A stretch of DNA of 64,000 nt from an uncultured Pseudomonadales bacterium (GTDB lineage Bacteria > Patescibacteriota > Microgenomatia > UBA1400 > PJMF01): assembly GCA_964620965.1 (NCBI GenBank), contig CAZUHV010000003.1, forward strand, positions 12,777-76,776. Direction: 5' to 3'. The notes under the pieces were generated by a model. That model saw only the letters and a list, made by a program, of their open reading frames with translations. It ran no database searches and was not told the origin of the DNA. Both the position numbers and the translations under genes were made by a program. Shown here one piece after another: positions 5,221-47,927 of this stretch; positions within the stretch are counted from its first letter, which is position 1; the number at the start of each line of letters is the position of its first letter.

Positions 5221-5290
5221 TTAACACTAAAAATTTCAAAAAAAGACCCTTCACAAACATACATCTGTGAAAGGTCTCCTTTTGAATATG

Positions 5291-5363
5291 TGAGTCGGGA
5301 GGGACTCGAACCCCCGACCAGTGAGGTATAAGCTCACCGCTCTACCAACTGAGCTACCGACTC
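5291..5363 (-). tRNA. tRNA, hand-folded anticodon loop CUUAUAC, anticodon UAU (Ile, AUA-reading)
   Basis: The reverse complement folds as a cloverleaf: acceptor GAGTCGG/CCGACTC, D-arm GCTC-AGTTGGTA-GAGC, anticodon stem GTGAG/CTCAC with loop CTTATAC, and T-arm GGGGG-TTCGAGT-CCCTC. It is 73 nt with no encoded CCA. The anticodon call rests on the manual fold only. Confidence 0.7.
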
Positions 5364-12112: not shown

Positions 12113-12685
12113 TTATTGCACTAATTGAACTACATCACCAGGTTGTATATTGAATTTTTCTGCATCACCAGCATTGACTTCTAAAACCATATCAGCATCT
12201 TGATTTGGAGAGTATGTTTCTAATCGATTGTCTGGCGTATCCTGTGGAGGTTTAGGAACATTTTTTGAAATTGCGACTACAATATTATTGTTTATCCAGA
12301 TCATGTCTAAGTCAAACTGCATGTCTTTCATCCAAAAGTATCGGTTTTCGCTTGTTGGAAAAATAAAAAGCATGCCTTCTGCACCGATTTCACTTCGCCC
12401 TGATAAACCCTGAGTAGTTGAATGAGCTGTATTTACAACTTCCACTGTAAGGATTCTTTCTTCTGGTATTGCTGTAAGTAGTTCTTCTGCGTCTGTTGCC
12501 TCTGCTATTTGCAGGGCTTCTAATTCTTTATTTGAGTTAAAAACGATTTCTACAATCTCTCTATCTTGCAAATCAGAAAAACGTCTTTGCTCTTCATCAA
12601 AAAGTGAGTTGCCATTTTTTTGTAAAATAAAATAACAAGTTATAGAAATCGCTAGCAAGAATATAAAAATAACTTTTTTAATCAT
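12113..12685 (-). CDS. DUF192-family protein (COG1430-like), secreted
   Basis: N-terminal signal-like segment. C-terminal pattern ...DMIWINNNIVVAI.....LEVNAGDAEKFNIQPGDVV is typical of DUF192. Confidence 0.5.
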   Translation of the reverse strand: MIKKVIFIFLLAISITCYFILQKNGNSLFDEEQRRFSDLQDREIVEIVFNSNKELEALQIAEATDAEELLTAIPEERILTVEVVNTAHSTTQGLSGRSEIGAEGMLFIFPTSENRYFWMKDMQFDLDMIWINNNIVVAISKNVPKPPQDTPDNRLETYSPNQDADMVLEVNAGDAEKFNIQPGDVVQLVQ

Positions 12686-27978: not shown

Positions 27979-29187
27979 ATGAAGAAAATACTACATATTT
28001 TTATTGCTTTTATTTTTCTTAGTTTTGCATTTTTTGGTGGAACAAAACAGGCGTATGCACAATCTGCTTGTACTTCGGCAATCAGAGCAAGCTTTAGTAT
28101 GAGTAACTGGGCTCCTTCATATGGAGGATCTTTTTTGGCAGGAGTAGATGCTTCCCCAGTAAACCCAACATTTTCTGGTTTAACTGCTAACAGCCAGTAC
28201 GTATTAACTTGTCAAAAAAAACAACTGTTTGGTTGGAGTTCTAATTTGGCCTCTTGGAATTTTTCAGCTAATGCAAGTGGAACTGGGACTGTTAATATCT
28301 CTAACAACAGTGTCTGTTGGGAAGACAAAGATGATTATCGGTTAATGATTGTTATCCAGTCAAGCGGTGCCAGTTGTCTAGTCCAAGAATATGAGGTTCT
28401 TGATCAATCAGAGGGAGTACGGTGTGTTACTAAAAGTGCAACAAACGCAAGCGGTCAATCTGGATGTTTTGAACAAAATGAACAAATTAATTGGAGTTTT
28501 GAAGTCGTTAATGGAGACGGAACTCCATATACAGACGAATTAATGGTGAGAACAACAAATGTTTATGGTGGAGGACTTGGGGCAGGCAGGATATTCAGTA
28601 ACCCTTCTGGGGTCATTACCGGCACTGATACTGCGATAGAGCTATATGAAGATGTCCCTGAAGATTACAACACAAGTATTGTTTACACAGTGTTTGCTGA
28701 AGCGGATATTCAAAAACAAATTGCAAGTTGTACTTTATATGCAGGGAATGTAAAACAGGACATGTGTACAGAGGATGACTATGAAAATGGGGCCACTCCT
28801 GGAGTAGACACCTTTTCACTTTGTGACCAAATTCCTGAACAATTTGAGGAACAAAAAACAAGCTGTAAAATCTGTACTGAAGGTGAGGGTGAAAACGAAG
28901 CTAACAAAGGTGTCTGGACAGCAATAGGCTGTATAAAAAGAGAACCTCAAGCGATTATGCAAAGACTTATTACAGTTGGACTAGGTATTTCTGGAGGTGT
29001 CGCCCTTCTCACTTTCCTTGCTGCTGGATTCATCTTTAGTACCTCACAAGGAGATCCAAAAGCTTATGGAAAAGCCAAAGAAATGATGACCGCCGCTATT
29101 GTAGGAATAATTTTTGTAATATTTTCAGTAACAATACTACAATTCATAGGATATGAGGTACTCAAAATACCTGGATTTGGTGGATAA
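27979..29187 (+). CDS. Secreted Cys-rich protein with a C-terminal T4SS-pilin-like (VirB2/TrbC-type, CPR pilin family) two-helix domain
   Basis: The signal peptide ends AYAQ. An ectodomain of about 300 aa follows. The C-terminus ...GISGGVALLTFLAAGFIFSTSQGDPKAYGKAKEMMTAAIVGIIFVIFSVTIL matches the conserved core of the pilin paralogs at 40.7-44.3 kb. Confidence 0.6.
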   Translation: MKKILHIFIAFIFLSFAFFGGTKQAYAQSACTSAIRASFSMSNWAPSYGGSFLAGVDASPVNPTFSGLTANSQYVLTCQKKQLFGWSSNLASWNFSANASGTGTVNISNNSVCWEDKDDYRLMIVIQSSGASCLVQEYEVLDQSEGVRCVTKSATNASGQSGCFEQNEQINWSFEVVNGDGTPYTDELMVRTTNVYGGGLGAGRIFSNPSGVITGTDTAIELYEDVPEDYNTSIVYTVFAEADIQKQIASCTLYAGNVKQDMCTEDDYENGATPGVDTFSLCDQIPEQFEEQKTSCKICTEGEGENEANKGVWTAIGCIKREPQAIMQRLITVGLGISGGVALLTFLAAGFIFSTSQGDPKAYGKAKEMMTAAIVGIIFVIFSVTILQFIGYEVLKIPGFGG

Positions 29188-29189
29188 TT

Positions 29190-29645
29190 ATGAAACTAGT
29201 TTCTAACTTAAAAAAAATATCAATTGTATTACTGTTATTAATTTTAGTTTGCTTTGCATCTCCTGCTGTTTCCTTTGCCCAAGAAGAAAATGGTGAAGGT
29301 AATGTAAACATGCAAGGCACAATACTTGAAGGCCCAAATAATGGCTTTTTCGACGCCATGAACCCACTTAAAACAGAGGGCTCTCCTGTAGCAGAACAAC
29401 TTTCTACACCCGGTGGAATTGTTTCTAGAGTTTTGAACTTCCTCTTTCCACTTGCTGGACTAGTCTTATTTGTAATGTTAGTCTGGGGTGGTTTTGAAAT
29501 TTTATCAAAGTCATCTCAAGGTACAAAAGGGGTCGAAGCTGGCAGAAACAGAATTACCGCAGCAATCGTTGGGTTCATTTTACTTTTTGCTACCTATTGG
29601 ATGGCTCAAATTATTGAGATTGTCTTTGGAATTGTGATCGTTTAA
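29190..29645 (+). CDS. T4SS pilin-like protein (VirB2/TrbC-type, CPR pilin family)
   Basis: The signal peptide ends SFAQ. The core is ...LVLFVMLVWGGFEILSKSSQGTKGVEAGRNRITAAIVGFILLFATYW. It starts 3 nt after the preceding gene. Confidence 0.65.
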   Translation: MKLVSNLKKISIVLLLLILVCFASPAVSFAQEENGEGNVNMQGTILEGPNNGFFDAMNPLKTEGSPVAEQLSTPGGIVSRVLNFLFPLAGLVLFVMLVWGGFEILSKSSQGTKGVEAGRNRITAAIVGFILLFATYWMAQIIEIVFGIVIV

Positions 29646-31718: not shown

Positions 31719-32708
31719 TTAAAACAAATGCTCTTGAATTTCTTTTGGCTTATCACCCACTTTTGCAGTTAGTGTTTTTACAACTAAGGACAAATTATTT
31801 AATCGTTCCTGCACTGCATCTTGGAATTTAGGTAAAGTCAAAATATGTAAATTAAAGCCAGTGTTAATAGTAAAATAACACTCAATTCCTTCTTCACGTA
31901 ATTTTTCGACCTCTTGCATTACCTGCAAAGTGCCTGGATACCATAAAATTAAAGGAACCTCACTTGTTAGTAAAATGCTATGAAATTCTAGCGCTTCTGC
32001 TTCAACAATCTTTCCTAGTTTTGTAAAATTCTTTTCTTTGATAGCAGATTTAACTGCTTCAATTTTTGCTTTGATATTATTTTGTCTTACCTCAAAAAAT
32101 GGGCTTGATTGTGCAGATTCATGTCCTTCAGTTGAGCTAATTTTTTTTTGGCCTTCATCTACTACTGCAACAACATCCCTAATATCCCAATGATCTTTGT
32201 CGAAAATTGTATGTGAATATGAAGTTTCTGAAGTATCTCCGTCTAACCATTCAACAAATCCCCCACATGCACATCTGCAAGCTGTTCCAGAAGCTTGTCG
32301 AGACAAAATACTCAATTCTTTTTCAGATAATTCTAAATCCAATGCTTTTGCAGCTGCATAGGTAAGTGCTGCCATACCAGAACCAGAACTAGAAAGTCCT
32401 GTTCCTCTTGGAAAAGTGTTTTTTGAAACAACTTTTGCTTTCAAATCTACGTTTGCTAGTTTTCGCATTCTATCAAGATGTTTTATAACTCGTTTCGCTT
32501 CTCTGGAAATTACTTCAATTTTTTTATCTTGAATGTACACTTCATCTTCAGAGAATGATTCACTAAACTCAACTGTTGTAATGGTATCCATGCCATCTAA
32601 AATGATTGAAATGCTACCATTTTCAGGTAGACGCAAAACTTCATCTTTTTTACCCCAATACTTGACCAAAGCAATATCACTAGAAGCTTTAATTGTCGTT
32701 TTTCTCAT
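31719..32708 (-). CDS. mvaD: Diphosphomevalonate decarboxylase
   Basis: ...IALVKYWGKKDE... The ORF track starts at 32768. The internal Met at 32708 (MRKTTIKAS) has an AGGA Shine-Dalgarno and avoids a 56-nt overlap with the upstream gene. Confidence 0.8.
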   Translation of the reverse strand: MRKTTIKASSDIALVKYWGKKDEVLRLPENGSISIILDGMDTITTVEFSESFSEDEVYIQDKKIEVISREAKRVIKHLDRMRKLANVDLKAKVVSKNTFPRGTGLSSSGSGMAALTYAAAKALDLELSEKELSILSRQASGTACRCACGGFVEWLDGDTSETSYSHTIFDKDHWDIRDVVAVVDEGQKKISSTEGHESAQSSPFFEVRQNNIKAKIEAVKSAIKEKNFTKLGKIVEAEALEFHSILLTSEVPLILWYPGTLQVMQEVEKLREEGIECYFTINTGFNLHILTLPKFQDAVQERLNNLSLVVKTLTAKVGDKPKEIQEHLF

Positions 32709-32712
32709 AAAA

Positions 32713-33714
32713 TTATTCCTCTGTCTTGCTTTCGATTCTGACACCTTCAGCATTAATAGCAACATCAATTACTTTACCATCGATTTTTTCTAATTCTTCT
32801 CTAACATTTTCTAATTTGTCTTCACTAGCAACGGCTAAAATACAGTCCCCACCTGCTGCGCCAGAAGAAGTTGCACCATATGCACCCGCGTCAATGGCTG
32901 TAGAAATGAGCTGTTCAAGTCTATTATTACTCACACCTAACTCTCGAGCACATTCTTGAGATTCATTAAATAAATCTCCAATTTTTTTCCAATCACTATG
33001 TTCTGCAGACTCGACAAAATCTTCTGCAACTGCAGCAATGCGTTTAAAAACTGTGTCAATTTTTTCTGGATTTTTTTCTAATTTACTATTTACAACCCTG
33101 ATAAGGGTTGGAGTATCAGCTTTTTCTCCAGAGTATGCAATTACTAATGGAATGTTTTTTGCCTTTATTTCCTTAACAACTTTCGCAGGACTTACATAGT
33201 ATAGTGAGCCTCCCCAAATTGCGGCAGCCAGATCATACCCAGATCCAACACCTTGAACTTCAATTACTGCTTCATAACATAAGTCAAATAATTCCTGATT
33301 TGTAAGCTCCAAACCATATAAAGTTGTTAGGGCTTTTGCAAATGCTACTGTTACCGCACTACTTGAACCAAAACCATAGGTACTAGAAAAATCACTTCTT
33401 GTTGTGACAATAATACCTTCTTTTTGTGGATGTAATTTCAAAAAATTCTTATACAAAATTTCGATAAATCGAACGGCCTTTGGTAAGTCTTTTTTACCTA
33501 GATCTGCCATGCTTTTTGTATATGACGACAAACCTAAATCTGGAGCGTCTAAATGAAACACATCAACTCCATTCTTTGTAACTGTAGCAAATAAACGCTG
33601 GTCAACTGCTGTAACTACAGTTGGATATCCATGAACAACTGCATATCCAACAGAAAGCATTAATTTTCCAGGAGCAGAAGCAGTAACTTGTTTTATATTT
33701 TTATTTTTGATCAT
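32713..33714 (-). CDS. Phosphomevalonate kinase (GHMP kinase)
   Basis: SAPGKLMLSVGYAVVHG...GFGSSSAVTVA. Confidence 0.65.
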   Translation of the reverse strand: MIKNKNIKQVTASAPGKLMLSVGYAVVHGYPTVVTAVDQRLFATVTKNGVDVFHLDAPDLGLSSYTKSMADLGKKDLPKAVRFIEILYKNFLKLHPQKEGIIVTTRSDFSSTYGFGSSSAVTVAFAKALTTLYGLELTNQELFDLCYEAVIEVQGVGSGYDLAAAIWGGSLYYVSPAKVVKEIKAKNIPLVIAYSGEKADTPTLIRVVNSKLEKNPEKIDTVFKRIAAVAEDFVESAEHSDWKKIGDLFNESQECARELGVSNNRLEQLISTAIDAGAYGATSSGAAGGDCILAVASEDKLENVREELEKIDGKVIDVAINAEGVRIESKTEE

Positions 33715-33731
33715 AATCTAAACAGAACTTT

Positions 33732-34604
33732 CTATTTTACCTCAGTTTCAATATTTTCCCAAGCATTTTCCTTACATAAATTGTTTACACTACTCAAATC
33801 TTTTGAGTATACAAGCAACCAACCAGAACCTGTTTGAATTCCACCAGCTCCGGTAATTTTTACATGAGCATCTGTTTTCCTAATTTCTGCAATCATTTTT
33901 TTTGCAGTTTCTCCAACAACTCCAAGTTTTTCCAGTTCCGTTTGGTTTTTATCTAATAAATCTCCAGAAAATATACCAGTATTGAGTTCTGCATATATGC
34001 TTTTACTAATTTTGCCAATTTTTTGTATGGTTTTTTTTAGTTCAGGCTCCTTTTTAATTTTTCCTGCAACAAACGAAACCATTTCTCCCGTAGACTCTGT
34101 TGCTTTTCCAGAATTGATTAACAAAAAAACATATTTTTTTGGCAAACTCATTTTTCGTTTTTCAAACTTTCCAGTTTCTAAATCTCGTCTAAATGAGTGC
34201 ACTCCTCCATATACAACTGCACAGGGATCAATTCCGCTAGGTTTTTTATGGATAAAAACTTCTGAATCAAGAACTAACTGAAACATTTCATCTTTTGGAA
34301 TAGAAATATTAAAAAAATCAGCCAGTGCTTGTAATACAGCATGTGCAAAAGCAGCAGAAGAACCAAGCCCAGAATTTTCTGGTATTTCTGATTTTACCTG
34401 TAACTTCAAAAATGAAGTATCTACACCATATTCTTTTTCAAATAAATCTAAAATATGTGATTCATACTCAGATCTTTCTGGTTTTATAGCAACTTTAGAA
34501 ACTGTAACAGTAATTGTTTTTTTCAAACTAGAAACTAGAGCTAATTCTCCGTGTACAACACTATGCTCCCCAGTAATAATGAATTTTCCGTAACTTTGAT
34601 TCAT
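33732..34604 (-). CDS. Mevalonate kinase (GHMP kinase)
   Basis: GKFIITGEHSVVHG...GLGSSAAFAHAV. Confidence 0.7.
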   Translation of the reverse strand: MNQSYGKFIITGEHSVVHGELALVSSLKKTITVTVSKVAIKPERSEYESHILDLFEKEYGVDTSFLKLQVKSEIPENSGLGSSAAFAHAVLQALADFFNISIPKDEMFQLVLDSEVFIHKKPSGIDPCAVVYGGVHSFRRDLETGKFEKRKMSLPKKYVFLLINSGKATESTGEMVSFVAGKIKKEPELKKTIQKIGKISKSIYAELNTGIFSGDLLDKNQTELEKLGVVGETAKKMIAEIRKTDAHVKITGAGGIQTGSGWLLVYSKDLSSVNNLCKENAWENIETEVK

Positions 34605-34740
34605 AAAAAAATTCTCAATAAATTGAGATATACATATAGTCGTAAAAAAATCTTAAAATCATGCAAATTACTTATTAAAATTGAACTTGTTGGAGCAAAA
34701 TTTCTATCTAATATAGCAAAAAACTATATTTATAAGAAAA

Positions 34741-35037
34741 CTATAATTTAACAGCCTTGAGGGTATATGGAATTATCGATATTTGATCTGGAATTTCAGC
34801 TTTTCGTAGTTCTAATCGAACCTGATCACCTATTTCAAATATTATTTGAGCCTCTCCCATAACTTCAATTTTTTTTCCAGAATCTAAAACTACAAGTAAA
34901 AAACAGTACGGCAAGAATGGTTCAAGTTCTGGAGTTGTTACCTCGACCTTTGTTACAAACTCAACAACACCAGTTTTACCTAGTAACTTATGCCAATTTT
35001 GACTTTCTCTATAGTACTTTGCAGGATATGCACTCAT
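34741..35037 (-). CDS. DUF35 OB-fold protein, small partner of archaeal-type thiolase/HMG-CoA synthase
   Basis: 98-aa ORF lying immediately downstream of the thiolase. The sequence is OB-fold-like. Confidence 0.5.
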   Translation of the reverse strand: MSAYPAKYYRESQNWHKLLGKTGVVEFVTKVEVTTPELEPFLPYCFLLVVLDSGKKIEVMGEAQIIFEIGDQVRLELRKAEIPDQISIIPYTLKAVKL

Positions 35038-35051
35038 CTTTTACCTCAACT

Positions 35052-36290
35052 TTACTGTTGTATCTCTTTACTCAAAATATGCACTACCGCTGTTGCCCCA
35101 CTTCCCCCAACATTATGTGCAAGTGCATATATTTTTTTACTCGATTTAGATTTATTTTGCGTTGATCCATTTTTTTCATAAGACTTTTCTAGTAATTGTG
35201 CCAAAAATGCAACTTGTTTTACTCCAGTAGCACCAACTGGATGTCCGCATGCTTTTAAACCTCCAGATGGGTTTATCACAACAGAACCACCATAGGTTGT
35301 TTGCCCATCAGCAACAGCCACCCCTCCCTTACCCTTTTTGAAAAAACCTAAGTCTTCGATTGCCAAAATTTCTGCAATCGTAAAACAATCATGAACTTCA
35401 GCATACGAAATATCTTTCGCAGATATATTGGCTTGTGTATATGCCTGTTGTGCCGCCAGCTTTGTTGCTCGTAACTCAAGTAACGACTCTCTGTCTGCAA
35501 GAGCTAGCGTGTCTTGGGCATGGCCAACAGCTTCAATTACAACTTTCTTGGAATATTTTTTGATATCTTTTGTGGTTAATATAACTGCAGCGGCACCATC
35601 AGAAATTGGTGAACAATCAAAAATTCGCAGAGGTTCTGCCACCATAGTACTTTTGCTAATCACTTCAACAGGAATTTCTTTTCTAAACTGAGCAGTTTTA
35701 TTTCCTAAAGCATGTATGTGATTTTTGTGTGCAACTTGAGAAAGTTGTTCCCTCGTTGTGCCAAACTCATTCATGTGAGCTTGAGCAAGTAATCCATACA
35801 ATGCAGGGAAAGTACTCCCAAACTCTTTTTGATACTCACTGGCTCCTGCAAGAATTTTTGTGGATTCTCCGACAGAAACATCTGTCATTTTTTCTGCACC
35901 AACTACAAGTACTGTTTTGTATTTGCCAGCTTGTAAGGCTGTTTCTGCTAGTTCAAGTGCAATACTTCCAGATGCACAAGCTGCCTCAACCCTAAATGCT
36001 GGCGGATTATGAGGTAACATCTGAGAAACTAGTGCATTTAAGTGGGATTGGTTCGCAAACTCACCTCCAGACATGTTTGCAACAAATACTGCATCAATCT
36101 CCAAAGAATTAAACTTCGACTGAGGCAACTTTATTCCATATTCATGTGTAACTACTCTATTTTTAAACGTAACACCATCTATCGAGTTTAGAGCTCCAAA
36201 CACAGCTTCTTCAAACAAACTCTCTAACGACCTCTGCCACAGCTCGCCAAACTTTGTTATATAGCTGCCAATTATTCTAATTTTTTTCAT
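35052..36290 (-). CDS. Acetyl-CoA C-acetyltransferase (thiolase, archaeal/SCP-x-like type)
   Basis: Thiolase fold with active-site Cys near AACASGS and C-terminal ...GHPVGATG. Confidence 0.8.
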   Translation of the reverse strand: MKKIRIIGSYITKFGELWQRSLESLFEEAVFGALNSIDGVTFKNRVVTHEYGIKLPQSKFNSLEIDAVFVANMSGGEFANQSHLNALVSQMLPHNPPAFRVEAACASGSIALELAETALQAGKYKTVLVVGAEKMTDVSVGESTKILAGASEYQKEFGSTFPALYGLLAQAHMNEFGTTREQLSQVAHKNHIHALGNKTAQFRKEIPVEVISKSTMVAEPLRIFDCSPISDGAAAVILTTKDIKKYSKKVVIEAVGHAQDTLALADRESLLELRATKLAAQQAYTQANISAKDISYAEVHDCFTIAEILAIEDLGFFKKGKGGVAVADGQTTYGGSVVINPSGGLKACGHPVGATGVKQVAFLAQLLEKSYEKNGSTQNKSKSSKKIYALAHNVGGSGATAVVHILSKEIQQ

Positions 36291-36333
36291 GTATTACTTT
36301 TTTGCTTAACTTCCGCCTGTGCATTTTTACCTA

Positions 36334-37434
36334 TTAGCTTTTCTTTTGCCAACTCTTTCTTGCTAAAACTAACTGTTTTGTAGTCTCAAAAATAAATGCA
36401 TCACTCCCAGAACCAGATCCATATGATGCAACCAATATTTTTTTATTCTCTTTTGCTACTTCTAATGTATTTGCCAATCCCAACATACTCGCACCAGCAT
36501 ACGTATTTCCAATAGTCTTTACTAACAAACTAGGCTCTAATTTTTCTAATGGTATTTCCATTTTCTTTGCAAAAGCTGTTGGGAACTTTTCATTTGGAGT
36601 ATGAAACACAAAATAATCTATATCTGAAATTTTCAAACCAGTCTCTTGTAAAATTTGTGAAACAGAAAGAAAAATATGTTTAAAATATCCCGGTTCTGCG
36701 GTAAACCTTCCCGCATGTTCAGGATGTTCTTGTTGTGGTCTTCTCCAAAAATCAGGTGTATCTGTTGCAACTGAAGTTGTTGCTAATAACCTTGCAAGCA
36801 ATCTATTTTCTTTTTTACCACTCGATTCTGAACCTAAAATAAATGCCGCTCCACCGGCAGATGCTGTATATTCAAGTACATCTCCAGATTTTGCCTGAGC
36901 AGTATCTGCTCCTATCGCTAATGCATAATCAGAAAAACCAGAAAGTACATATAGAGCAGAAATTTGCAAAGCTTGAGTTCCAGCCTTACACGCAAACTGT
37001 AGGTCTGCTAAAGCAAGTGGTTTTACAAGATTACTAGAATTATCACTTACAAAGCCTTCATTTTCAATAAAACTGTCTGATGCAATTCCAAGTGCTTGAG
37101 CTACGACTGTTCCCGAAGGCTTAACTGCATACGGATGACTTTCACTCCCAATAAAAATTGCTCCAATTTGCTTTTTTACAGCGCCAACTAAGCCGCCTCT
37201 GTTACCAACTAAACCTTCTAACCTTTGGATCGCTTCAAATCCAGCCGCTGTTGCAATAGTAATAGTGTCTTCATCACTGTTTGGAACGCTTTTAGAAATA
37301 ACTCCTAAAGATGCGTAAATCTTTTGGGTTTCTTTTCCTTGTTTTTTGGCAATTTTTGCACCAGTTATTCTTTCCTTTGGAATTCTCAGTCCATACGAAA
37401 CAATGCCAACTGGTTTTTTACTAGTAAAAATCAT
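36334..37434 (-). CDS. Hydroxymethylglutaryl-CoA synthase (archaeal-type)
   Basis: Thiolase-like condensing-enzyme fold. Position between the thiolase and HMGR genes. ...GSESHPYAVKP... Confidence 0.7.
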   Translation of the reverse strand: MIFTSKKPVGIVSYGLRIPKERITGAKIAKKQGKETQKIYASLGVISKSVPNSDEDTITIATAAGFEAIQRLEGLVGNRGGLVGAVKKQIGAIFIGSESHPYAVKPSGTVVAQALGIASDSFIENEGFVSDNSSNLVKPLALADLQFACKAGTQALQISALYVLSGFSDYALAIGADTAQAKSGDVLEYTASAGGAAFILGSESSGKKENRLLARLLATTSVATDTPDFWRRPQQEHPEHAGRFTAEPGYFKHIFLSVSQILQETGLKISDIDYFVFHTPNEKFPTAFAKKMEIPLEKLEPSLLVKTIGNTYAGASMLGLANTLEVAKENKKILVASYGSGSGSDAFIFETTKQLVLARKSWQKKS

Positions 37435-37442
37435 ATATTTTT

Positions 37443-38735
37443 CTAAGATTTTGTAAGTTTTGCTCTTCCAAGTTTTTTGTGAGCACTTGCCAGAGTGTCT
37501 GTTGTTAGAGCAGCCAAACCAGAAATTTCTCCGGCAAGAGCTGCTATACCTGCCCCTATCGCTAAGTCTTCTGCTTTTACTTCAATTTGTTTTTTTATTG
37601 TTTTTCCATTATTTTTTTCTACTTCTTGTATGTCTTCTTGCCCTGAAAAATTTCTCAGCAGAAACCTTGCCTGAGTTTGTTTTGGTAACCAAGTTCCACC
37701 TCCTACACTTCCAACACTTACATTTGGTAAAGTGAGCGCTACATACAAAAAATCATCAACTACTTCAAAATGAACACTTGCTTCACTCCCTGCAACTACA
37801 TGTGCAATATCCTGGCCAGTTGCTAGATAAAAGGCTCCTAAAGCATTCGCTACGTGCATATTTTGAGCAAACGAACCTGCAACATTACTCCCAATCACAT
37901 TTTTTACTAAATGTGTTTTTACGAGTCTCTTTGCGTCAACTTTTAGTAAAGGCTCTACATCAATAAGCTTAATTTTTGTTTCGACTGTTACAAAATATCC
38001 ACGTCCCTTGATTCTATTGATCATTGAATCTTTTTTATCTGTACACACATTCCCGGAAACAGTTAGTAAAGAAACCCAAATAGAATCGGGAAGTTGACGC
38101 TTAAACTTATCCCAGGCATATGAAAGTGCAATTGTAACCATGTTCATCCCCATTGCCTGATCTGTATCAAATACAAATCGGTAGTACAAAAGCTTATCTC
38201 GCATATATGATTCATAACTTAAAAATTTTAGGTGAGAACTCGTTTCTTCACAAAATTGAGCAAAAAGTGAGATGTTTTTTGAAAAATATTCCTCAAAAAT
38301 GACCGCGTCCTCTATTGAACCGCACTCGAAAACTACCGATCTACTCATGCCAATTTTCTTAACAATCACGGTTGTTTTTCCAGAATTTAAAACTTTAACT
38401 CCTCGTTGTATCGAAGCAACAAGTGCTCCTTCTGTTGTAGCAAGAGGAATAAAAAATGTCTTTTTTTCTTCTGATTTATCAGATTTAGTTGCATCAGAAA
38501 TATAAACTGATGTAACTGTGACTGGACCAGCAACTCCAACAGGAACCTCTACAGACCCAATATAATTTTCGCAGTTTTTTGTTCCAACTTCCTGAGGTAA
38601 ACTCGTCTCAAACAAAACATTCAGTTCTTTTTTAGAAATATCTGTAGCATCACAAATAAATTCTTGCCTTAATTCGCGTTTTTGATCTTCAGATAGTGTT
38701 TTGTCTCTAATATACAAAGACTGAGTTTTCGTCAC
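37443..38735 (-). CDS. Hydroxymethylglutaryl-CoA reductase (class I type)
   Basis: ...TTEGALVASIQRG..., DQAMGMNMV and GTVGG motifs. Confidence 0.85.
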   Translation of the reverse strand: MTKTQSLYIRDKTLSEDQKRELRQEFICDATDISKKELNVLFETSLPQEVGTKNCENYIGSVEVPVGVAGPVTVTSVYISDATKSDKSEEKKTFFIPLATTEGALVASIQRGVKVLNSGKTTVIVKKIGMSRSVVFECGSIEDAVIFEEYFSKNISLFAQFCEETSSHLKFLSYESYMRDKLLYYRFVFDTDQAMGMNMVTIALSYAWDKFKRQLPDSIWVSLLTVSGNVCTDKKDSMINRIKGRGYFVTVETKIKLIDVEPLLKVDAKRLVKTHLVKNVIGSNVAGSFAQNMHVANALGAFYLATGQDIAHVVAGSEASVHFEVVDDFLYVALTLPNVSVGSVGGGTWLPKQTQARFLLRNFSGQEDIQEVEKNNGKTIKKQIEVKAEDLAIGAGIAALAGEISGLAALTTDTLASAHKKLGRAKLTKS

Positions 38736-38839
38736 AAAACATTAGTCGGAAAAACAAACAATATTCACGCAAAATTTAAATCATTACTCAAAACTAATTA
38801 AGTAAAAAAAACCAATTTTCACTTTGTTTTCAGCGAATA

Positions 38840-39514
38840 CTATGAAAAAAGTTCTTTAAAAGCATCAAAAAGTCGTGCGTTTTTTAACATTAAAACTGTC
38901 CAAGGAGCTAATAAAAATTCTTTTTCAGAAACAATGACTTGTACCGTTGGTGTTTTTTCTTTTAATTCCCGAGTATCAAGAATAGCAAGCGTTTGTTCTG
39001 CGGCTATGTACTCCATTGTTGATACTGTTGAATATAGTTCTTTGAAATCAACCCAGCACACTTCACTTACTTCTTCCTTATTTATATGAAGCTGTTGGTT
39101 TAATAAACCAACATACACTTGGTCTATTTCGTGTTCACCATAGATATCATTTCCATATGCTTTATAAGAAAACTTAAAAGTTGGCTTTACAGAAACTCCT
39201 TTTAATCCTAACTCTTTATCCAGCCTTCTGTTTACACAATCATAAAAGGTTTCAGTTGGCCAAGCGTTTCCACAGGCAGAGTTTGCCCACCATCCGGCAC
39301 CAACAATTTTTTTATCACTTCTTTTTTGTAATAATACTTCACCCTTTGAATTAAATAACCAAACAGAAATTGCTAAGTGCAGTTTTGAAGGGTATTTATG
39401 AGCCTCAAATTTATCTTCTGGACCAATAAATGTGCCATCTGGCTCGACCAAACTTACTTCATCTTTTGCTATGAGTATCTCTCGTATTGTTTTATTTTGT
39501 GTGTCTGTATTCAT
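38840..39514 (-). CDS. idi: Isopentenyl-diphosphate delta-isomerase, type 1 (Nudix fold)
   Basis: ...SVWLFNSKGEVLLQKRS...WANSACGNAWPTE...RRLDKELGL. Confidence 0.7.
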   Translation of the reverse strand: MNTDTQNKTIREILIAKDEVSLVEPDGTFIGPEDKFEAHKYPSKLHLAISVWLFNSKGEVLLQKRSDKKIVGAGWWANSACGNAWPTETFYDCVNRRLDKELGLKGVSVKPTFKFSYKAYGNDIYGEHEIDQVYVGLLNQQLHINKEEVSEVCWVDFKELYSTVSTMEYIAAEQTLAILDTRELKEKTPTVQVIVSEKEFLLAPWTVLMLKNARLFDAFKELFS

Positions 39515-39519
39515 AAAAA

Positions 39520-39858
39520 CTAATCCTTATAGACAACTGTAAACCTCAATAATAAATACAATAACAAGATTTGCCAATAAATACAAAAAAAAGTAATAAC
39601 ATTGGAAATAAAGCTGATCCAATCACAAGCAAAAAAGTGAGTTGCAGAACAACTGAAAAGCAGTTGCACTGTTGGAACCAAAACCGATTTCCAAAAAACT
39701 GTTAAAAAGCTCAGAAAAAAACTAGGGAGCAGTGTCATCCAAACAAATAGCTTTTGCTTCACAAGAGACTGCATTGTTTGATATGGGTGCAATAAAAGAC
39801 CAGTTGTAATTTGTCCTAAAGAATACACTACAGAAAAAAAGACTCTTCTTGTTTTCAT
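39520..39858 (-). CDS. Hypothetical membrane protein (possible anti-sigma component)
   Basis: 112-aa ORF with 3-4 TM segments. It is translationally coupled (4-nt overlap) to the upstream small gene and the ECF sigma gene. Confidence 0.35.
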   Translation of the reverse strand: MKTRRVFFSVVYSLGQITTGLLLHPYQTMQSLVKQKLFVWMTLLPSFFLSFLTVFWKSVLVPTVQLLFSCSATHFFACDWISFISNVITFFCIYWQILLLYLLLRFTVVYKD

Positions 39859-40049: not shown

Positions 40050-40574
40050 TTAAATTACTAACCATAGTTCCTTAAATTCTTTGCGAGCCCTAAAAAGATC
40101 TGACTCTATAGATTTGCTACTCTTCCCTAATTCTTTTGCAATGACAGCAACTTTCTTTTCATCTGCATATTTCAAAAGTAGTAATTCACTATAGTCTGCT
40201 CGCATATGTGAAAGCACTTGTCTCACCTTTTGAGAAACTTCATCACTATCAGAGATTTGATTTATCGGAATTAACTCAGAGAGCGGAATTGTTTTTAATG
40301 CTTTTTTTGCGTACTTCTTCCTAAAGTAATCTGATATCTCATGCCGAGCAATAGAGTTCATCCAAGTCCAAATACTTGATTTTCCCAAAAAAAGTGGCAA
40401 ATGCTTAAGACAATTTAAAAATGTCTGTTGAGTAATTTCTTCAGCATCTTTTTTATTAGAAACCTTGACCTCAACAATTCGTAGTAACCTAATAAAATAA
40501 AGGTCAAACCAAGTTTTAACCGCAGATTCATCACCAGTTTTTAGCTGAGCTATAAGTTCTGTATCTTCTATCAT
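40050..40574 (-). CDS. RNA polymerase sigma factor, ECF subfamily
   Basis: Region 2 (...DLYFIRLLRIV...ITQQTFLN...) and region 4 helix-turn-helix (YSELLLLKYADEKKVAVIAKELGKSSKSIESDLFRARKEFKEL). Confidence 0.65.
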   Translation of the reverse strand: MIEDTELIAQLKTGDESAVKTWFDLYFIRLLRIVEVKVSNKKDAEEITQQTFLNCLKHLPLFLGKSSIWTWMNSIARHEISDYFRKKYAKKALKTIPLSELIPINQISDSDEVSQKVRQVLSHMRADYSELLLLKYADEKKVAVIAKELGKSSKSIESDLFRARKEFKELWLVI

Positions 40575-43385: not shown

Positions 43386-43414
43386 TTGCAGTATGTATCA
43401 AGTACAAGTATAAT
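43386..43414 (+). promoter_or_regulatory. Near-consensus sigma-70-type promoter (TTGCAG-17 nt-TATAAT) upstream of pilin paralog 7
   Basis: TTGCAG at 43386-43391, a 17-nt spacer, then TATAAT at 43409-43414. The RBS AGGAAA lies about 8 nt before the ATG at 43463. Confidence 0.45.
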
Positions 43415-43462
43415 TAAATAATAAGTAGTCAGTAATAAACTGAAAAGTAATAAAGGAAACAT

Positions 43463-43840
43463 ATGAGAAACAAACTCAATGGTTTAGCACTAAGTGCAGC
43501 AGCATTTGTCACTGCAGTTCCAGCTGTGTTTGCACAAAACACAAATGTTAGTGACATCGAAACTCCAGACTTCTTCTTTACAGATGTTGGTGTTTTAATC
43601 AACAAGGCACTTAACTTCGTTATGGTTCTTGGTGCTTTATTAGTATTCATGTACCTCATCTGGGGTGGTATTGAATGGATTACCTCTGGTGGTGATAAAG
43701 GTAAGACAGAGTCTGCACGTAACAAGATTACAGCTGCAGTTCTCGGTTTGATCGTCCTCGCAGCTGCATGGGCAATCTTAGGATTAGTCCTCAAATTCTT
43801 AGGTGCAGGAGACTTGAACTCATTAATCGATCAACTTTAA
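43463..43840 (+). CDS. T4SS pilin-like protein, paralog 7 of 8 (candidate major pilin)
   Basis: The signal peptide ends AVFAQ. Core WGGIEWITSGGDKGKTESARNKITAAVLGLIVLAAAWA. Codon usage is distinct and C-ending-rich. The gene has its own promoter and a strong terminator. Confidence 0.7.
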   Translation: MRNKLNGLALSAAAFVTAVPAVFAQNTNVSDIETPDFFFTDVGVLINKALNFVMVLGALLVFMYLIWGGIEWITSGGDKGKTESARNKITAAVLGLIVLAAAWAILGLVLKFLGAGDLNSLIDQL

Positions 43841-43867
43841 TACAAATTAATTTTTGATTTTAAAAAA

Positions 43868-43890
43868 GCCCCTCTTTTGAGGGGCTTTTT
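43868..43890 (+). terminator. Rho-independent terminator after pilin paralog 7
   Basis: gcccctc-tttt-gaggggc hairpin followed by ttttt. Confidence 0.65.
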
Positions 43891-43924
43891 GGTGTAAAAA
43901 ATAATGATATAATCAACTCTAGAT

Positions 43925-44347: not shown

Positions 44348-44405
44348 AAAAGTATTCAGTAAAAACATCCCTGAAAAAATACTCTTCACAAGGTATAATA
44401 TTGTT

Positions 44406-47400
44406 GTGCACATAAAGTTTTTAAAACTGCTAGCAACACAGTTGTCTATTTTGTTCTTCTTAGCAATGTCTCTTGTTATTCCGAAATTTGCTCTTGCGTC
44501 TGAACTAATTGGAACACATCTTGGTGAAGGAGACGTTGGTTATCAAATTAATATCATTAGAAACGTTCTTATTCCGAACGGCTTAGAACCTGGAAGCCCT
44601 GTCACTGTCATGGTTCCTGTTACCATGATTCAAGACAGCCAACTAGGAACTGTCCAAGAGTTGGCAAATGCTGTGAGTTCTGCTGGATACTTTCCAATTG
44701 TGAGAATAAATGGAGTTTGTTCAAATTTTTCTGCTGAAACAGGAAAGGGACCGGGAGAAACTGTAGATGCTGTCAGAAGCATTTTTGGTTCTCAGGCACT
44801 CATTGTTTGGGGAAACGAAATCAACAACAAAGAAAATGAGTGTAATGACTGGCAAAAATATCTTTCCGACTATATTCAAATCGAAGGCAGACCAAACGTT
44901 AGCCCTGCTGCACTAGATTATTACATGGGTAACCCCGACTTTACCGTAAGCAAGATGTTTGCAGATACTCCAGGTATGGAGGCAATTTTCAATACATCCC
45001 CACGAGCTGCGAATGCTTATGGTTGTGTTGGTTCAAATAGCGCAGACTGTGATCCTAGTTCAACCACAACTCAAGAAGTTGGATATGGATCTGTAGGAAA
45101 CCCTTTTTATTTAACTGAGTTTTCTTTGTCTCCAGGAGGGAATGCTAGTGATGCTCCAGACACAGATATTGCAAAAGTCCTAGAATTTATTGCATCTCGA
45201 GCTGGAGAAACAGGAGCTCAAAAAGTTACACCACTTGTAAGAAATGTTTGTAATAATGACAGCGCTTGGCTTATCTACATCAACGGAAAACTGTTTACAC
45301 CTCAAGGGAATGAAGTCAGTGAAAACTGTGAGGGAATTTCTGGTGGTTCTGGATATGACTTAAGTAGGTATCCCGAATATGGAGTTGATGAAACGAAATC
45401 ATACATTACTCCAATAAGAAACTTAATAGACGGAGCAAGTACTCAATACACAGTTGCAGCACTTAGAGAAGAATTAGCAAAACAAGGATATGAAGCATAT
45501 TGTGCCAGTGAAAATATCAAAATTGATCCTAAATATGACACAGAAGAACTAATCAATAGGTATTTTGAATTATACCCAGATGGAGTTCAAATACTTGAAG
45601 CTGACTCTGTTGAGACTTTAAGCACTACCAATGCTCAGTATCCCCTTTGGCGTGACGTTAGTAATAAACAATTTTTACTAACTTCCCTAGAAGAATATTT
45701 TGGATTTAAAGATATTTATCAATCAGATCCTGGAGCAAGTGTCCTTACCAGTGCTCCTATAAATTCCCTACTCTCTGAGCCTCAAATGTGTGTACAAGGC
45801 TGGAAAAATTTAGTTGCACAAGAACTCGCTTGTGAACGTTTACAAAATCCAGGAGAATGTGAGCTTTTTACCAGACCAATTCCAGGAACCAGCTATACTG
45901 TTAAAACATTATTAGATGCTCTTAAAGCATATGAACCAGGATATAGAGAAGGAATGGCAACTAAAGGTTGTACAAACCTAGTAGCTGGGGATCGTCTGTT
46001 AAACCCAAAACTATTTGAGGGACTTATTAATACTCCAACATATTTTGACAGAGCGTATAGATACGGCTTTATTGTTGCTGTTATTCATGCAAAAAGCCCA
46101 TTGACTGATTCTGGAAATATCGCAGCAAGAATCTTCAACTTTTTCACAGAAAGCACCAGAACAGAAGAACCAAGAGACGAAGTATTGGTAGCTGCATTTA
46201 AATTACCAGATATAGCAACAAACAAATTCCAAGATGAGACTAACGGTGTACAGTTTTGGGATGATCCACTCTCTTTAACAAGATTAGTTCTTTCTAATCA
46301 TGAAAGAAATGAATTGCATGCTAAAGATTTTGATAAAACAAATGCTGTACGGTCTCGTACAGAAACTGCAGCAGATTTATTTGAAAATGCAAATGACGCA
46401 AAAGTTCAAAACTCTGGTAGTAAAATCTTCTGTTCTATTTCTTCTGAAGATGGAGATGGAAACCAAGTCATCACAAAAGCAAGTACTTCATGTAGAAATA
46501 ACATGACAAAAGCACTCACTGATATTATCAATGGAAATGCACAAGGATGTGGAGACGTTGAAGCTGTCAATGTTATTAAAGATATTGCAGGACTTGATAA
46601 TCCAGAAGAAAAATATGGAAGAGTTTTTAATGGCGACAATGGTTTAGAAGTAATTCTTAATCTATTTAAAGGTGATAAAACTCATCCAGCTGCTGGAAGT
46701 GGACAACAAACCGATCCGCAACGTGCTGAAACTAATGATCCTGCAGAAAAACTCAAATCTTTATTTACCCTCTCAAAAGACACTTGGGGTTCACGCGAAG
46801 GTGGCACAACTGTAGATTTTTATGTAGTCTACCCTATGGGATTTGAGCTTAATGCAGTAGAAGATGCTATGAAGGGTGCTTTCTTTACGAAAGCGCAAAT
46901 TGCTGCTCTTGATAGTCAACAAATTGTAGATGGATTTCCACTTACCGGACAAAGCATGAGTCTTTCTGCTGGTAGTGATGGATTTGAATATATTGATCCA
47001 GAAAAAACTGCCGCTGGAGATTGTGGAACAGAACAACCTGTTGATCCAATTACAGGTCTTCCAGTTGGAACTCCAGTTCCAAAGCCGTGTACCCAAGATG
47101 TAAGTGTTACCCTTTCTCAAGAAAGTGGTGGAGTTGGAATTCTTGGTGCAAAACTTGGCTTCTGGATGAGAAAAATTCAAACTCAACTCAGTTCTAGAAC
47201 AGGTGAAGCATGGAAATACTTTTCTTCTTGCAAAACAACTGAAGAATTTATGTTAGGAAAATGTACTGGAGGTAGCTTCGCAGGTTCTGATGATAATACT
47301 GGAGATGGATCTCCGGGAACCTCTGGAGATGATCTTGTTTCTGTTGCTCAATGTAATGGAGGCCCAAGAATAACTGCAGGAGGAGATGCTGAACATGTTT

Positions 47401-47927
47401 CTACTACTGGAACTGGAGCCTGTGCAGGAAAAGAAACAAATGAGTATGTTCCAAGTATTCATAACGTTTCAAATTGGAAAAGTCCTGGTGATGCTGTAAT
47501 CGATTGTGAAGACCTCTACTCCTATGCCGATTGTACATATCCTGAGTCACTTGTTCAGAACCCTGTTAATAGTTCTGGAAAATTTGTTGAGAATGGTAAT
47601 GTCACTGCATGCCAGTATGTGGTAAACAAAGCAAAAGAACTTGGAGTTAGCCCTCGCCTAGCTCTTGCAATGTGGGGAGAAGAATCTGGGTTTAGTCACT
47701 ATAGAGTTCCAGATTTAGGGGTTATTTCACAACCAGCTCAAGACCTTGAGGCTCAAGTAACTAGCTTTGCAAACACTTTAAAGTCATACAGTAATTATAT
47801 AGACTTTTTGGAAGCTTATTCTGGTGAAGAAAGAGGAGATAACGACCCAAGTCCAAATCAATTCTGTAATAATCTGTACTTCCTAGCAAGACTAAAAGTC
47901 TTCTATGACTCTCTAGGACCTAGATAG
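44406..47927 (+). CDS. Large secreted protein of unknown function (1173 aa), in the T4SS-like locus
   Basis: Signal peptide MHIKFLKLLATQLSILFFLAMSLVIPKFALA. No TM segments after it. Cys-containing. No family recognised. Confidence 0.55.
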   Translation: MHIKFLKLLATQLSILFFLAMSLVIPKFALASELIGTHLGEGDVGYQINIIRNVLIPNGLEPGSPVTVMVPVTMIQDSQLGTVQELANAVSSAGYFPIVRINGVCSNFSAETGKGPGETVDAVRSIFGSQALIVWGNEINNKENECNDWQKYLSDYIQIEGRPNVSPAALDYYMGNPDFTVSKMFADTPGMEAIFNTSPRAANAYGCVGSNSADCDPSSTTTQEVGYGSVGNPFYLTEFSLSPGGNASDAPDTDIAKVLEFIASRAGETGAQKVTPLVRNVCNNDSAWLIYINGKLFTPQGNEVSENCEGISGGSGYDLSRYPEYGVDETKSYITPIRNLIDGASTQYTVAALREELAKQGYEAYCASENIKIDPKYDTEELINRYFELYPDGVQILEADSVETLSTTNAQYPLWRDVSNKQFLLTSLEEYFGFKDIYQSDPGASVLTSAPINSLLSEPQMCVQGWKNLVAQELACERLQNPGECELFTRPIPGTSYTVKTLLDALKAYEPGYREGMATKGCTNLVAGDRLLNPKLFEGLINTPTYFDRAYRYGFIVAVIHAKSPLTDSGNIAARIFNFFTESTRTEEPRDEVLVAAFKLPDIATNKFQDETNGVQFWDDPLSLTRLVLSNHERNELHAKDFDKTNAVRSRTETAADLFENANDAKVQNSGSKIFCSISSEDGDGNQVITKASTSCRNNMTKALTDIINGNAQGCGDVEAVNVIKDIAGLDNPEEKYGRVFNGDNGLEVILNLFKGDKTHPAAGSGQQTDPQRAETNDPAEKLKSLFTLSKDTWGSREGGTTVDFYVVYPMGFELNAVEDAMKGAFFTKAQIAALDSQQIVDGFPLTGQSMSLSAGSDGFEYIDPEKTAAGDCGTEQPVDPITGLPVGTPVPKPCTQDVSVTLSQESGGVGILGAKLGFWMRKIQTQLSSRTGEAWKYFSSCKTTEEFMLGKCTGGSFAGSDDNTGDGSPGTSGDDLVSVAQCNGGPRITAGGDAEHVSTTGTGACAGKETNEYVPSIHNVSNWKSPGDAVIDCEDLYSYADCTYPESLVQNPVNSSGKFVENGNVTACQYVVNKAKELGVSPRLALAMWGEESGFSHYRVPDLGVISQPAQDLEAQVTSFANTLKSYSNYIDFLEAYSGEERGDNDPSPNQFCNNLYFLARLKVFYDSLGPR

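Follow-up and report, generated by a model that had tools for sequence, protein, structure and literature searches.

A probable major pilin gene with its own conserved expression signals in an eight-gene VirB2-like array of Patescibacteria

The seventh gene (P7) of a tandem array of eight pilin-like genes (P1-P8) probably encodes a conserved, separately transcribed and highly expressed subunit, for which 'major pilin' is the best reading. P7 is the only member of the array with a predicted promoter of the canonical sigma-70 type, a leader (about 40-50 nt) that contains a strong Shine-Dalgarno (SD) sequence, an intrinsic terminator and codon usage resembling that of ribosomal-protein genes. It is the retention of these signals across 78 related loci that points to such a subunit. 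The array lies in a 64-kb stretch of DNA, here called the window. We are fairly confident, judging from signals in the DNA, that P7 is highly expressed, while the chances that it has a role in a filament appear about even. On the whole we find it likely that P7 is the high-output major subunit of a filament or conduit resembling those of type IV secretion systems (T4SS), and that the other seven proteins are low-copy parts. A preliminary description of the same DNA had already proposed P7 as the highly expressed major pilin; comparison of sequences supports the proposal.

Introduction

Arrays of pilin-like genes are of interest because such an array is essential for epibiotic life in the sole Patescibacterium that has been tested genetically. 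The genetic work was done in Southlakia, where a series of six pilin genes is essential (Wang et al. 2023, PMC10633639). A survey of these loci (Quinonero-Coronel et al. 2025, PMC12102498) counts 441 VirB2-like arrays of 2-11 genes with a mean identity of about 25 %, which are commonest in Microgenomatia and Saccharimonadia. In its sections on pilin arrays the paralogues are treated as variable, and it is suggested that they aid in adapting to different hosts. According to a metatranscriptome of Paceibacteria, the top five secreted genes of unknown function in two Minisyncoccaceae MAGs, ranked by expression, include T4SS pilins (PMC10936435). A named major pilin of a Patescibacterial T4SS pilin array was not found in the literature searched.

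Materials and methods

Related loci were obtained by scanning species-representative genomes with P7 peptides, which gave 78 loci, each taken with 20 kb of context. Pilin-like open reading frames (ORFs) in these loci were collected with an HMM of the eight window paralogues and then assigned to the best-matching window paralogue. Membership of PF18895 (T4SS_pilin) was judged by its gathering score of 26.6 bits. Genes other than P7 with a downstream gap of at least 60 nt (n = 393) served as controls for terminators.

Codon usage was expressed as C/(C+T) at Phe, Tyr, Asn, Ile, His and Asp codons, as a stand-in for the codon adaptation index. The preference for C or T at two-fold codons is also the basis of Sharp's S, which uses Phe, Tyr, Ile and Asn. 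Comparison genes were taken from the same strand, since the window has a strong third-position strand skew. Loci with five or more pilin genes, 71 in all, entered the comparison across loci. The ribosomal codon reference was small, consisting of the only six ribosomal-protein genes in the related loci, from six other genomes; a motif scan of the loci for further reference genes found only infB.

Results

The array and its relatives

The window has 35 % G+C and one tRNA; rRNA, ribosomal-protein and elongation factor genes are absent from its 64 kb. The array consists of eight consecutive ORFs of 124-199 aa on the plus strand (Table 1). All eight match PF18895, five of them above the gathering score and P1 and P2 within 1 bit below it. 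Any two of P1-P8 share on average 34 % local identity and at most 60 %, over 57 residues. The array thus agrees with the published definition of a Patescibacterial VirB2 pilin array, i.e. 2-11 genes of low identity that stand in tandem or have one other gene between them (PMC12102498).

Table 1 Positions of the features discussed, counted from the first nucleotide of the window
Feature	Position	Strand	Remarks
VirD4/TraG-like ATPase	9125-11458		Only recognisable T4SS ATPase in the window, about 30 kb from the array
ECF-type sigma factor	40050-40574	-	Sigma70_r2, Sigma70_r4_2, Sigma70_ECF; divergent from P1
Candidate -10 box of P1	40657-40662		TTTTCA-17-TATAAT, 10/12
Array P1-P8	40673-44347	+	Eight pilin-like genes
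P1	40673-41047	+	PF18895 just below cut-off
P2	41049-41456	+	PF18895 just below cut-off
P3	41458-42057	+	PF18895 17.8 bits, below cut-off
P4	42088-42465	+	PF18895 above cut-off
P5	42471-42905	+	PF18895 above cut-off; weak PF04956 match
P6	42905-43342	+	PF18895 above cut-off
Gap P6-P7	43343-43462		120 nt, 77.5 % A+T
P7 putative -35 element	43386-43391	+	TTGCAG; 17-nt spacer to -10
P7 putative -10 element	43409-43414	+	TATAAT; ends 48 nt before ATG
P7 putative SD	43452-43457	+	AAAGGA; 5 nt before ATG
P7	43463-43840	+	125 aa; T4SS_pilin/VirB2-like; PF18895 43.3 bits
P7 predicted intrinsic terminator	43866-43895	+	AAGCCCCTC-TTTT-GAGGGGCTT, then T-rich tail; dG -16.8 kcal/mol
P8	43925-44347	+	PF18895 above cut-off; TATAAT at 43908-43913, 11 nt before ATG; SD absent
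1173-aa secreted ORF	44406-47927	+	Downstream of the array; counterpart in 29 related loci
555-aa multi-pass membrane ORF	49248-50915	+	Conserved neighbour in 32 related loci

The order P1-P2-P3-P4-P5-P6-P7-P8, with one-to-one best matches, recurs in most of the 78 loci, and the deviations are an occasional missing member or an extra P7-like copy between P7 and P8. This collinearity of one-to-one orthologues indicates that the array is an old, position-conserved putative operon of eight different proteins. P7 is its most conserved member, with a median identity of 57 % compared to 40-53 % for the others and the first rank in 34 of 56 loci. This ranking is biased upwards, as P7 peptides had been used to find the loci. 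PF18895 is present in all of the best 120 listed P7 homologues (97-56 % identity), and the named homologues among the matches listed are Patescibacteria labelled Woesebacteria, Pacebacteria or Microgenomates. The species-representative genome closest to P7 is 'Patescibacteria group bacterium BroJett025' (82 % identity), in which the array lies at about 1,100,500-1,104,300 of BOKR01000001.1. The exact P7 sequence occurred once, on a Logan contig of 3.9 kb. Short contigs with P7 homologues were also considered as assembled transcripts, an idea that was rejected: they contain neighbouring genes as well and are metagenome fragments of low coverage.

The neighbourhood is partly conserved as well. 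The ECF-type sigma factor gene beside P1 keeps its position and strand in 49 related loci. The 1173-aa and 555-aa ORFs downstream of the array had no match in Pfam or NCBIfam, and no array neighbour matched the VirB4 or VirB6 models; it is possible that the 555-aa protein is a VirB6-like channel component. That no VirB4 was recognised near the array, and that the sole T4SS-type ATPase is about 30 kb away, are points against the proposed role of P7 in a T4SS-like machine.

Promoter and leader of P7

A near-consensus promoter had been described for P7. The hexamers, their spacing and their positions are confirmed, but 'near-consensus' is too generous for the window itself: TTGCAG agrees with TTGACA at 3 of 6 positions and the whole site scores 9/12 (3 + 6, spacer 17). 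It therefore misses the rule of four matches per hexamer in the consensus scan and is absent from the list that the scan returned. With 37 promoter-like sites in the region compared to 35.2 in shuffles, the P7 promoter does not rise above chance on the window alone.

The relatives give a different picture, and the conservation of the hexamers that the preliminary description had expected was borne out. Sites with at least 10/12 matches occurred within 110 nt upstream of the P7 orthologue in 54 of the 78 loci, and sites with at least 11/12 in 41. The corresponding counts were 34 and 3 among 357 control upstream intergenic regions of the same loci, and at least 10/12 was reached in 86 of 1580 shuffled P7 upstream sequences. 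The usual promoter of the orthologues is TTGAC[T/G]-18-TATAAT with the -10 element ending 40-50 nt before the ATG, and a perfect or 5/6 -10 box is found at about this distance in most of the loci. The spacer and the flanks of the hexamers vary freely among the orthologues and the hexamers are conserved. Thus P7 is preceded by what a sigma-70-type promoter should look like, i.e. hexamers 16-18 nt apart that are conserved above their surroundings. When the loci were compared position by position, a promoter of at least 10/12 was present at 70 % of P7 orthologues, compared to 1-21 % at the other seven positions and at the extra P7-like copies.

The putative TTGCAG-17 site of the window is a derived, degraded form of TTGAC[T/G], after loss of the A of TTGAC, which leaves one base fewer between TTG and TATAAT and accounts for both the hexamer TTGCAG and a spacer of 17 instead of 18. 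It is shared with two contigs at 97 % identity (L082, L083), whereas a contig at 86 % identity (L080) has TTGACG-18.

The ribosome-binding site of P7, called good in the preliminary description, is present at 5 nt before the ATG (Table 1). An SD core of at least 5 nt from AAGGAGG, usually TAAGGAG, precedes 79 % of the P7 orthologues, compared to 1-19 % at other positions. Both the promoter (TTGCAG) and the SD (AAAGGA) of the window's own P7 are weaker than those of the relatives. The extra P7-like copies in other loci have neither promoter nor SD, and the signals therefore belong to the position in the array and not to the type of sequence. A candidate hairpin in the 5' leader, TCAGT-N5-ACTGA, was rejected as a conserved element: its energy is -3.9 kcal/mol (z -1.45) and the median z of the orthologues is about 0.

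Terminator and transcription units

The AT-rich gap of 120 nt in front of P7 and the strong intrinsic terminator behind it were both found as previously described (Table 1). In the 78 loci the P7 orthologue is set apart by median gaps of 90 nt on its upstream side and 85 nt on its downstream side, compared to 4 nt between other pilin genes. Just past the stop codon of P7 stands a GC-rich stem-loop with a T tract, GCCCCTC-TTTT-GAGGGGC followed by TTTTT, with a stem of 7 bp (9 bp with the flanking A-T pairs) and a loop of 4 nt. Of the P7 orthologues, 71 of 79 have a GC hairpin and T tract that start 17-36 nt downstream of the stop codon, with stem sequences unrelated to each other, and of the 393 control genes 38 have such a structure.

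According to these predicted signals the array is split into three putative units: P1-P6, with a short leader or none, P7, and P8 together with downstream genes. P1-P6 are probably co-transcribed from the -10 box ahead of P1, and P8 and the 1173-aa ORF, which has a TATAAT box 6 nt before its start codon, form a predicted separate downstream unit. The scan of the window found no terminator-like site on the plus strand between P6 and P7, and read-through from P1-P6 into P7 is therefore possible.

P7 is not, as had been claimed, the only gene of the array with a promoter, since P1 has a candidate of 10/12 and P8 also has a TATAAT box. A TATAAT ending 4-14 nt before the ATG is present at the P1 orthologue in 73 % of the loci and at the P8 orthologue in 49 %, compared to 24 % of all ORFs; the P1 and P8 orthologues have no SD. 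Since rpsT of this lineage is itself served by promoters of the leaderless type, those of P1 and P8 cannot be assumed to be weak.

The monocistronic layout of P7 would allow independent regulation, and with a conserved ECF sigma factor beside the array one may ask whether P7 is a pilin variant under separate control that is made only under particular conditions, for example on contact with a host, instead of a constitutive bulk subunit. Its promoter and terminator would then serve independent control and not high output. The survey of the arrays favours functional versatility of the paralogues (PMC12102498), in line with such a variant. We nevertheless consider it quite improbable. The promoter of P7 in the relatives is a near-perfect housekeeping-type TTGACx-18-TATAAT and not an ECF-type motif, the spacer and leader of P7 showed nothing resembling a conserved operator across the orthologues, and the ribosomal-protein-like codon bias described below indicates sustained heavy translation.

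Codon usage

Preference for C over T in two-fold boxes, with GGT raised and ATA lowered, is the usual signature of translational selection in bacteria of low G+C content. In P7, C/(C+T) was 21/32 = 0.66, compared to 83/281 (about 30 %) in the other seven pilins (Fisher OR 4.6, p = 1e-4) and 683/2148 in the other plus-strand genes (p = 1.6e-4), and P7 had the highest C3 of the 56 ORFs of the window. Gly was encoded by GGT in 10 of 12 cases, compared to 28 of 114 in the other pilins, and none of the nine Ile codons was ATA, which makes up 17-22 % elsewhere. The distinct codon usage that had been reported for P7 therefore stands for the C-ending codons and for GGT; a preference for CGT does not, as there is only one CGT codon. 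The effective number of codons was uninformative (Nc 42.8, rank 39 of 54), as the selection for C runs counter to the mutational bias towards A+T.

The same bias recurs in the relatives. Mean C/(C+T) over the 71 loci was 0.49 for the P7 orthologue, 0.35 for the other pilins and 0.36 for other genes of the same strand; the P7 orthologue was higher in 60 loci and ranked first in 44 (Wilcoxon p = 4e-11). GGT made up 0.53 in P7 compared to 0.34 (62 of 71 loci) and ATA 0.06 compared to 0.13. With a median protein identity of 57 % and saturated synonymous sites, the bias must have been maintained in each lineage and not merely inherited. Five rpsT genes and one rpsO gave 45/78 = 0.58 against backgrounds of 0.25-0.42, with five of the six in the predicted direction. 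The codon bias had been expected to be elevated when set against ribosomal-protein genes, and this was found in terms of C/T preference and with the six genes of other genomes as reference, P7 deviating in the same direction. The codon usage of P7 thus bears the apparent signature of translational selection in the direction of ribosomal-protein genes. This suggests that translational selection is detectable in slow-growing bacteria with small genomes, at least in P7 and a few ribosomal-protein genes.

P7 is richer in G+C than its neighbours (0.41 compared to about 0.37), as is its GC3 (0.34 compared to about 0.22), as would be expected if its codon usage were an artefact of composition, owing to a recent horizontal transfer or to gene conversion with a source of higher G+C content, and had no bearing on expression. 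This origin is very hard to reconcile with the rest of the pattern, and we give it hardly any weight. Only the choice of C over T at two-fold codons, GGT and ATA are affected, and the C:T ratio at four-fold codons is unchanged (9:29 in P7 compared to 62:190). G3 is not raised, and in the relatives four-fold C and G are even slightly lower in P7 than in the other pilins. When P7 genes at least 80 % identical in DNA were collapsed into 57 clusters, the bias was seen in 47 of them (p = 1e-8), i.e. it recurs independently. The divergence values of P1, P4 and P8 rise with those of P7 (rho about 0.6), as vertical co-inheritance predicts. On the codon pattern and its recurrence, horizontal transfer was rejected as an explanation of the distinct codon usage.

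Counting against high expression of P7 are the degraded -35 element and SD in the window, the probable location of the array on the lagging strand, which is read from the third-position skew and is unusual for very highly expressed genes, and the about 15 % of loci without P7 codon bias, including one at 72 % identity (L044).

The P7 protein

P7 aligns with PF18895 over residues 43-109 (profile positions 6-71 of 71), well above the gathering score, and is a member of this family. Residues 1-24 form a Sec-type signal peptide, MRNK followed by a hydrophobic stretch and VFA|Q, whose last residue, Ala24, is invariant in 45 aligned homologues. In this alignment the mature N-terminus is variable and the core LLVFMYLIWGGIEWITSGGDKGKTESARNKITAA almost invariant. 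The AlphaFold2 model shows two long helices (42-74 and 79-112; pLDDT >90) that the SGGD turn connects, and block pLDDT values range from 81 to 96 over residues 41-110. The signal peptide and the predicted hydrophobic hairpin of two helices, here with the loop WITSGGDKGK, are those expected of a T4SS_pilin. The preliminary description credited P7 with the cleanest WITSGGDKGK core of the array, which is incorrect, as P6 carries the same ten residues.

'Pilin' would be a misnomer if P7 were an abundant T4SS-like membrane protein of another kind, such as a lipid-embedded ring or channel lining or a shed or secreted hairpin, and not a filament subunit. The fold search leaves room for such proteins, as it cannot separate the P7 hairpin from other helical hairpins: Foldseek of the P7 model against the PDB returned no significant match, and the second-ranked entry, the Aeropyrum pernix conjugation pilin 8dfu (E = 2.5), is compatible with a VirB2-type hairpin without being diagnostic of it. 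The best NCBIfam match of P7 is the 'pilin-like' protein of mycoplasma integrative elements (NF045849; E = 1e-9, residues 40-112 on profile positions 7-79 of 80), at 37.8 bits below the curated cut-off of 40, which places P7 outside the family. To our knowledge, no pilus is known for that mycoplasma family. Monoderm T4SSs are normally without pili according to the survey (PMC12102498), and no pilus has been demonstrated in Patescibacteria; a review raises a pilus in these monoderm bacteria as a possibility (PMC12857230). P7 is on the other hand related to VirB2/TrbC at the family level, through PF18895 in P7 itself and weak PF04956 co-matches in several of its homologues, and one abundant subunit accompanied by seven conserved subunits with low signals is the pattern of a filament system. 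A non-filament role for an abundant P7 is in our view unlikely, though it deserves to be kept in mind.

Discussion

Proposed role of P7

The reading of P7 as a major subunit would work as follows. Transcription of P7 would start at its own promoter, supplemented by whatever read-through comes from P1-P6, and its short mRNA would stop at the terminator. The protein would be translated efficiently and exported by Sec, with the signal peptide cut after Ala24, and the helical hairpin of about 100 residues would accumulate in the membrane as a pool. From this pool a T4SS-like machine would build a filament or conduit. The seven other pilin-like proteins, weakly signalled and individually conserved, may serve as low-copy subunits for priming, for the tip or the base, or as adaptors. 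The four sequence signals of P7 (promoter, SD, terminator and codon bias) each recur at its position in most of the related loci and point to higher expression of P7 than of the other pilin genes, so that the comparison with orthologous arrays proposed in the preliminary description favours P7.

More tentatively, and with somewhat greater doubt than belief, we put forward a heteromeric VirB2-type structure, in which P7 is polymerised in bulk and the seven others are non-redundant minor subunits for priming, tip, base or host contact. If this is true, there would be a major/minor pilin architecture in a T4SS of monoderm ultra-small bacteria. Such an architecture is, as far as we know, known so far only for type IV pili, type II secretion systems and fimbriae. 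The heteromeric reading would also replace the suggestion of antigenic or host-range variation for the paralogues. The evidence from P1-P8, as far as gene order and sequence can tell, argues against the variation model for this array: the strict position-by-position conservation argues that the seven other pilins are fixed parts of one machine and not interchangeable variants.

As the probable bulk subunit, P7 is a target for antibodies, tagging and purification and for modelling as a homopolymer. Its expression cassette, TTGACx-18-TATAAT with a leader of about 45 nt containing TAAGGAG and a tight terminator, is a candidate strong expression cassette, which is relevant for the phylum as genetic tools for Patescibacteria are only beginning to appear.

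Comparison with known systems

Type IV pili, the pseudopili of type II secretion systems and chaperone-usher fimbriae each combine one heavily expressed major subunit gene with several genes of low expression for minor subunits of the same fold. In operons of the pap/fim type the stoichiometry depends on a terminator or attenuator immediately behind the gene of the major subunit. The P7 array resembles these systems in expression logic only; folds and assembly machines are unrelated.

The VirB2-type pilin is expected to be the most abundant component of a T4SS, and we know of no set of seven conserved accessory VirB2-like proteins. The VirB2, TrbC and TraA pilins of diderm bacteria are, like P7, small proteins with a signal peptide, a hydrophobic two-helix hairpin and a relation to PF18895. 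They differ from P7 in their hosts, as that of P7 is monoderm, and known T4SS pili consist of a single VirB2-type pilin with VirB5 at the tip (PMC12857230).

The Mbov_0395/MMCAP2_0565 family (NF045849), encoded on integrative and conjugative elements (ICEs) of mycoplasmas, shares with P7 a wall-less or monoderm host and machinery of the MPF-FATA type. As far as we know, proteins of the Mbov_0395 type are encoded by single-copy genes on mobile elements, unlike P1-P8, which form a chromosomal array.

Closest to P1-P8 are the Patescibacterial VirB2 arrays, which likewise consist of small tandem PF18895/VirB2-like genes of low identity in genomes of the Microgenomatia type. In the accessible sections of the published accounts no major subunit is named for these arrays, whereas the present one has eight fixed one-to-one positions, one of them with signals of its own. 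The type of array is thus already published, and what appears to be undescribed so far is the fixed synteny of eight positions together with a dedicated high-output P7 unit.

Expression signals and possible regulators of the pilin array

P1 and P8, the first and last of the eight consecutive pilin genes, and the 1173-aa ORF that follows them have start codons without a Shine-Dalgarno sequence, and in each case a TATAAT box ends just 6-14 nt upstream of the start. Such a start-proximal TATAAT was kept at P1 in 73 % of the loci and at P8 in 49 %, the value for all ORFs being 24 %. The ribosomal gene rpsT of five related genomes (loci L065, L067, L069, L072 and L074, near position 12,300) similarly has TGnTATAAT 8-10 nt upstream of its ATG. 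These sequence patterns suggest that genes of this lineage are commonly expressed from leaderless or near-leaderless mRNAs.

An ECF-type sigma factor gene and a gene for a 112-aa membrane protein are divergent to P1. Since their position was kept in 49 and 46, respectively, of the 78 related loci, some of the array genes may be under their control. The leader of P7, the likely major pilin gene, contains a small inverted repeat, TCAGT-N5-ACTGA, which is weak (-3.9 kcal/mol). The closest relatives retain it, the loop differing among them, but it was not a general feature of more distant orthologs.

Features within and around the pilin array (window positions)
Feature	Position	Strand	Remark
683-aa DUF11-repeat protein	370-2421	+	
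tRNA-Ile (anticodon UAU)	5290-5363	-	
777-aa VirD4/TraG-like coupling-type ATPase	9125-11458	-	
402-aa protein	27979-29187	+	PF18895 domain at C-terminus (32.3 bits)
151-aa pilin-like ORF	29190-29645	+	directly 3' of 402-aa gene
Mevalonate-pathway cluster	31719-39514	-	adjoins pilin array
112-aa membrane ORF	39520-39858	-	possible anti-sigma factor; beside P1
ECF-type sigma factor	40050-40574	-	adjoins P1
TATAAT box of P1	40657-40662	+	
N-terminal coding stretch of P1	40673-40708	+	
N-terminal coding stretch of P2	41049-41084	+	
N-terminal coding stretch of P4	42088-42114	+	
Inverted repeat in P7 leader	43429-43443		
TATAAT box of P8	43908-43913	+	
TATAAT box of 1173-aa ORF	about 44394-44399	+	
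1173-aa secreted ORF	44406-47927	+	3' of array; kept there in 29 related loci
555-aa multi-pass membrane ORF	49248-50915	+	3' of array; kept there in 32 related loci
1481-aa protein	57755-62200	+	weak C-terminal CHAP match, below cut-off

Pilin N-termini and further pilin-like genes

The (F/Y/I)-A-Q motif marks the end of the signal peptide in P5-P8; in P1, P2 and P4 it is preceded by merely 8-11 residues, as in MFFGIIPTVFAQ, and no extension of these three ORFs further 5' was possible. A normal Sec signal peptide is longer than these N-termini of P1, P2 and P4, which also have no charged n-region.

The 402-aa and 151-aa genes form a second pilin-like pair apart from the main array, and the pair is also found 5' of the array in several related loci. 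Many relatives (L005, L006, L010-L015 and many others) have an extra, longer P7-like gene right after the P7 terminator and before P8. This copy, which has neither promoter nor Shine-Dalgarno sequence and lacks most of the codon bias, is absent from the lineage of the window.

Codon usage and strand composition

The + strand is C-rich at third codon positions throughout the window in genes of both orientations (third-position skew, read on the own strand of each gene, -0.31 for + genes and +0.25 for - genes), and thus this strand, which bears the pilin array, is probably the lagging strand. The DUF11-repeat protein also has a significantly raised C-ending codon preference, 63/132 compared to a background of 0.31 (p = 5e-5), and could thus be another surface protein made in abundance. 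The window has a single tRNA gene, for tRNA-Ile, whose product decodes ATA directly with its UAU anticodon and not via a lysidine-modified CAU.

Neighbouring genes and candidate secretion components

The mevalonate cluster encodes HMG-CoA reductase, thiolase, two GHMP kinases, diphosphomevalonate decarboxylase, a condensing-enzyme-fold ORF occupying the position of HMG-CoA synthase, and a NUDIX-type ORF, which may be the IPP isomerase. Synteny was seen for the NUDIX gene in 37 related loci and for the reductase gene in 16.

The 1173-aa and 555-aa ORFs, neither of which matched any Pfam or NCBIfam model, are candidate components of the secretion machine. The 1481-aa protein, with its weak match to CHAP, a peptidoglycan hydrolase domain, and the coupling-type ATPase may be further parts of this secretion machine, dispersed across the window. 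With respect to known secretion systems, the ATPase is VirD4/TraG-like and the 555-aa membrane protein could be VirB6-like.
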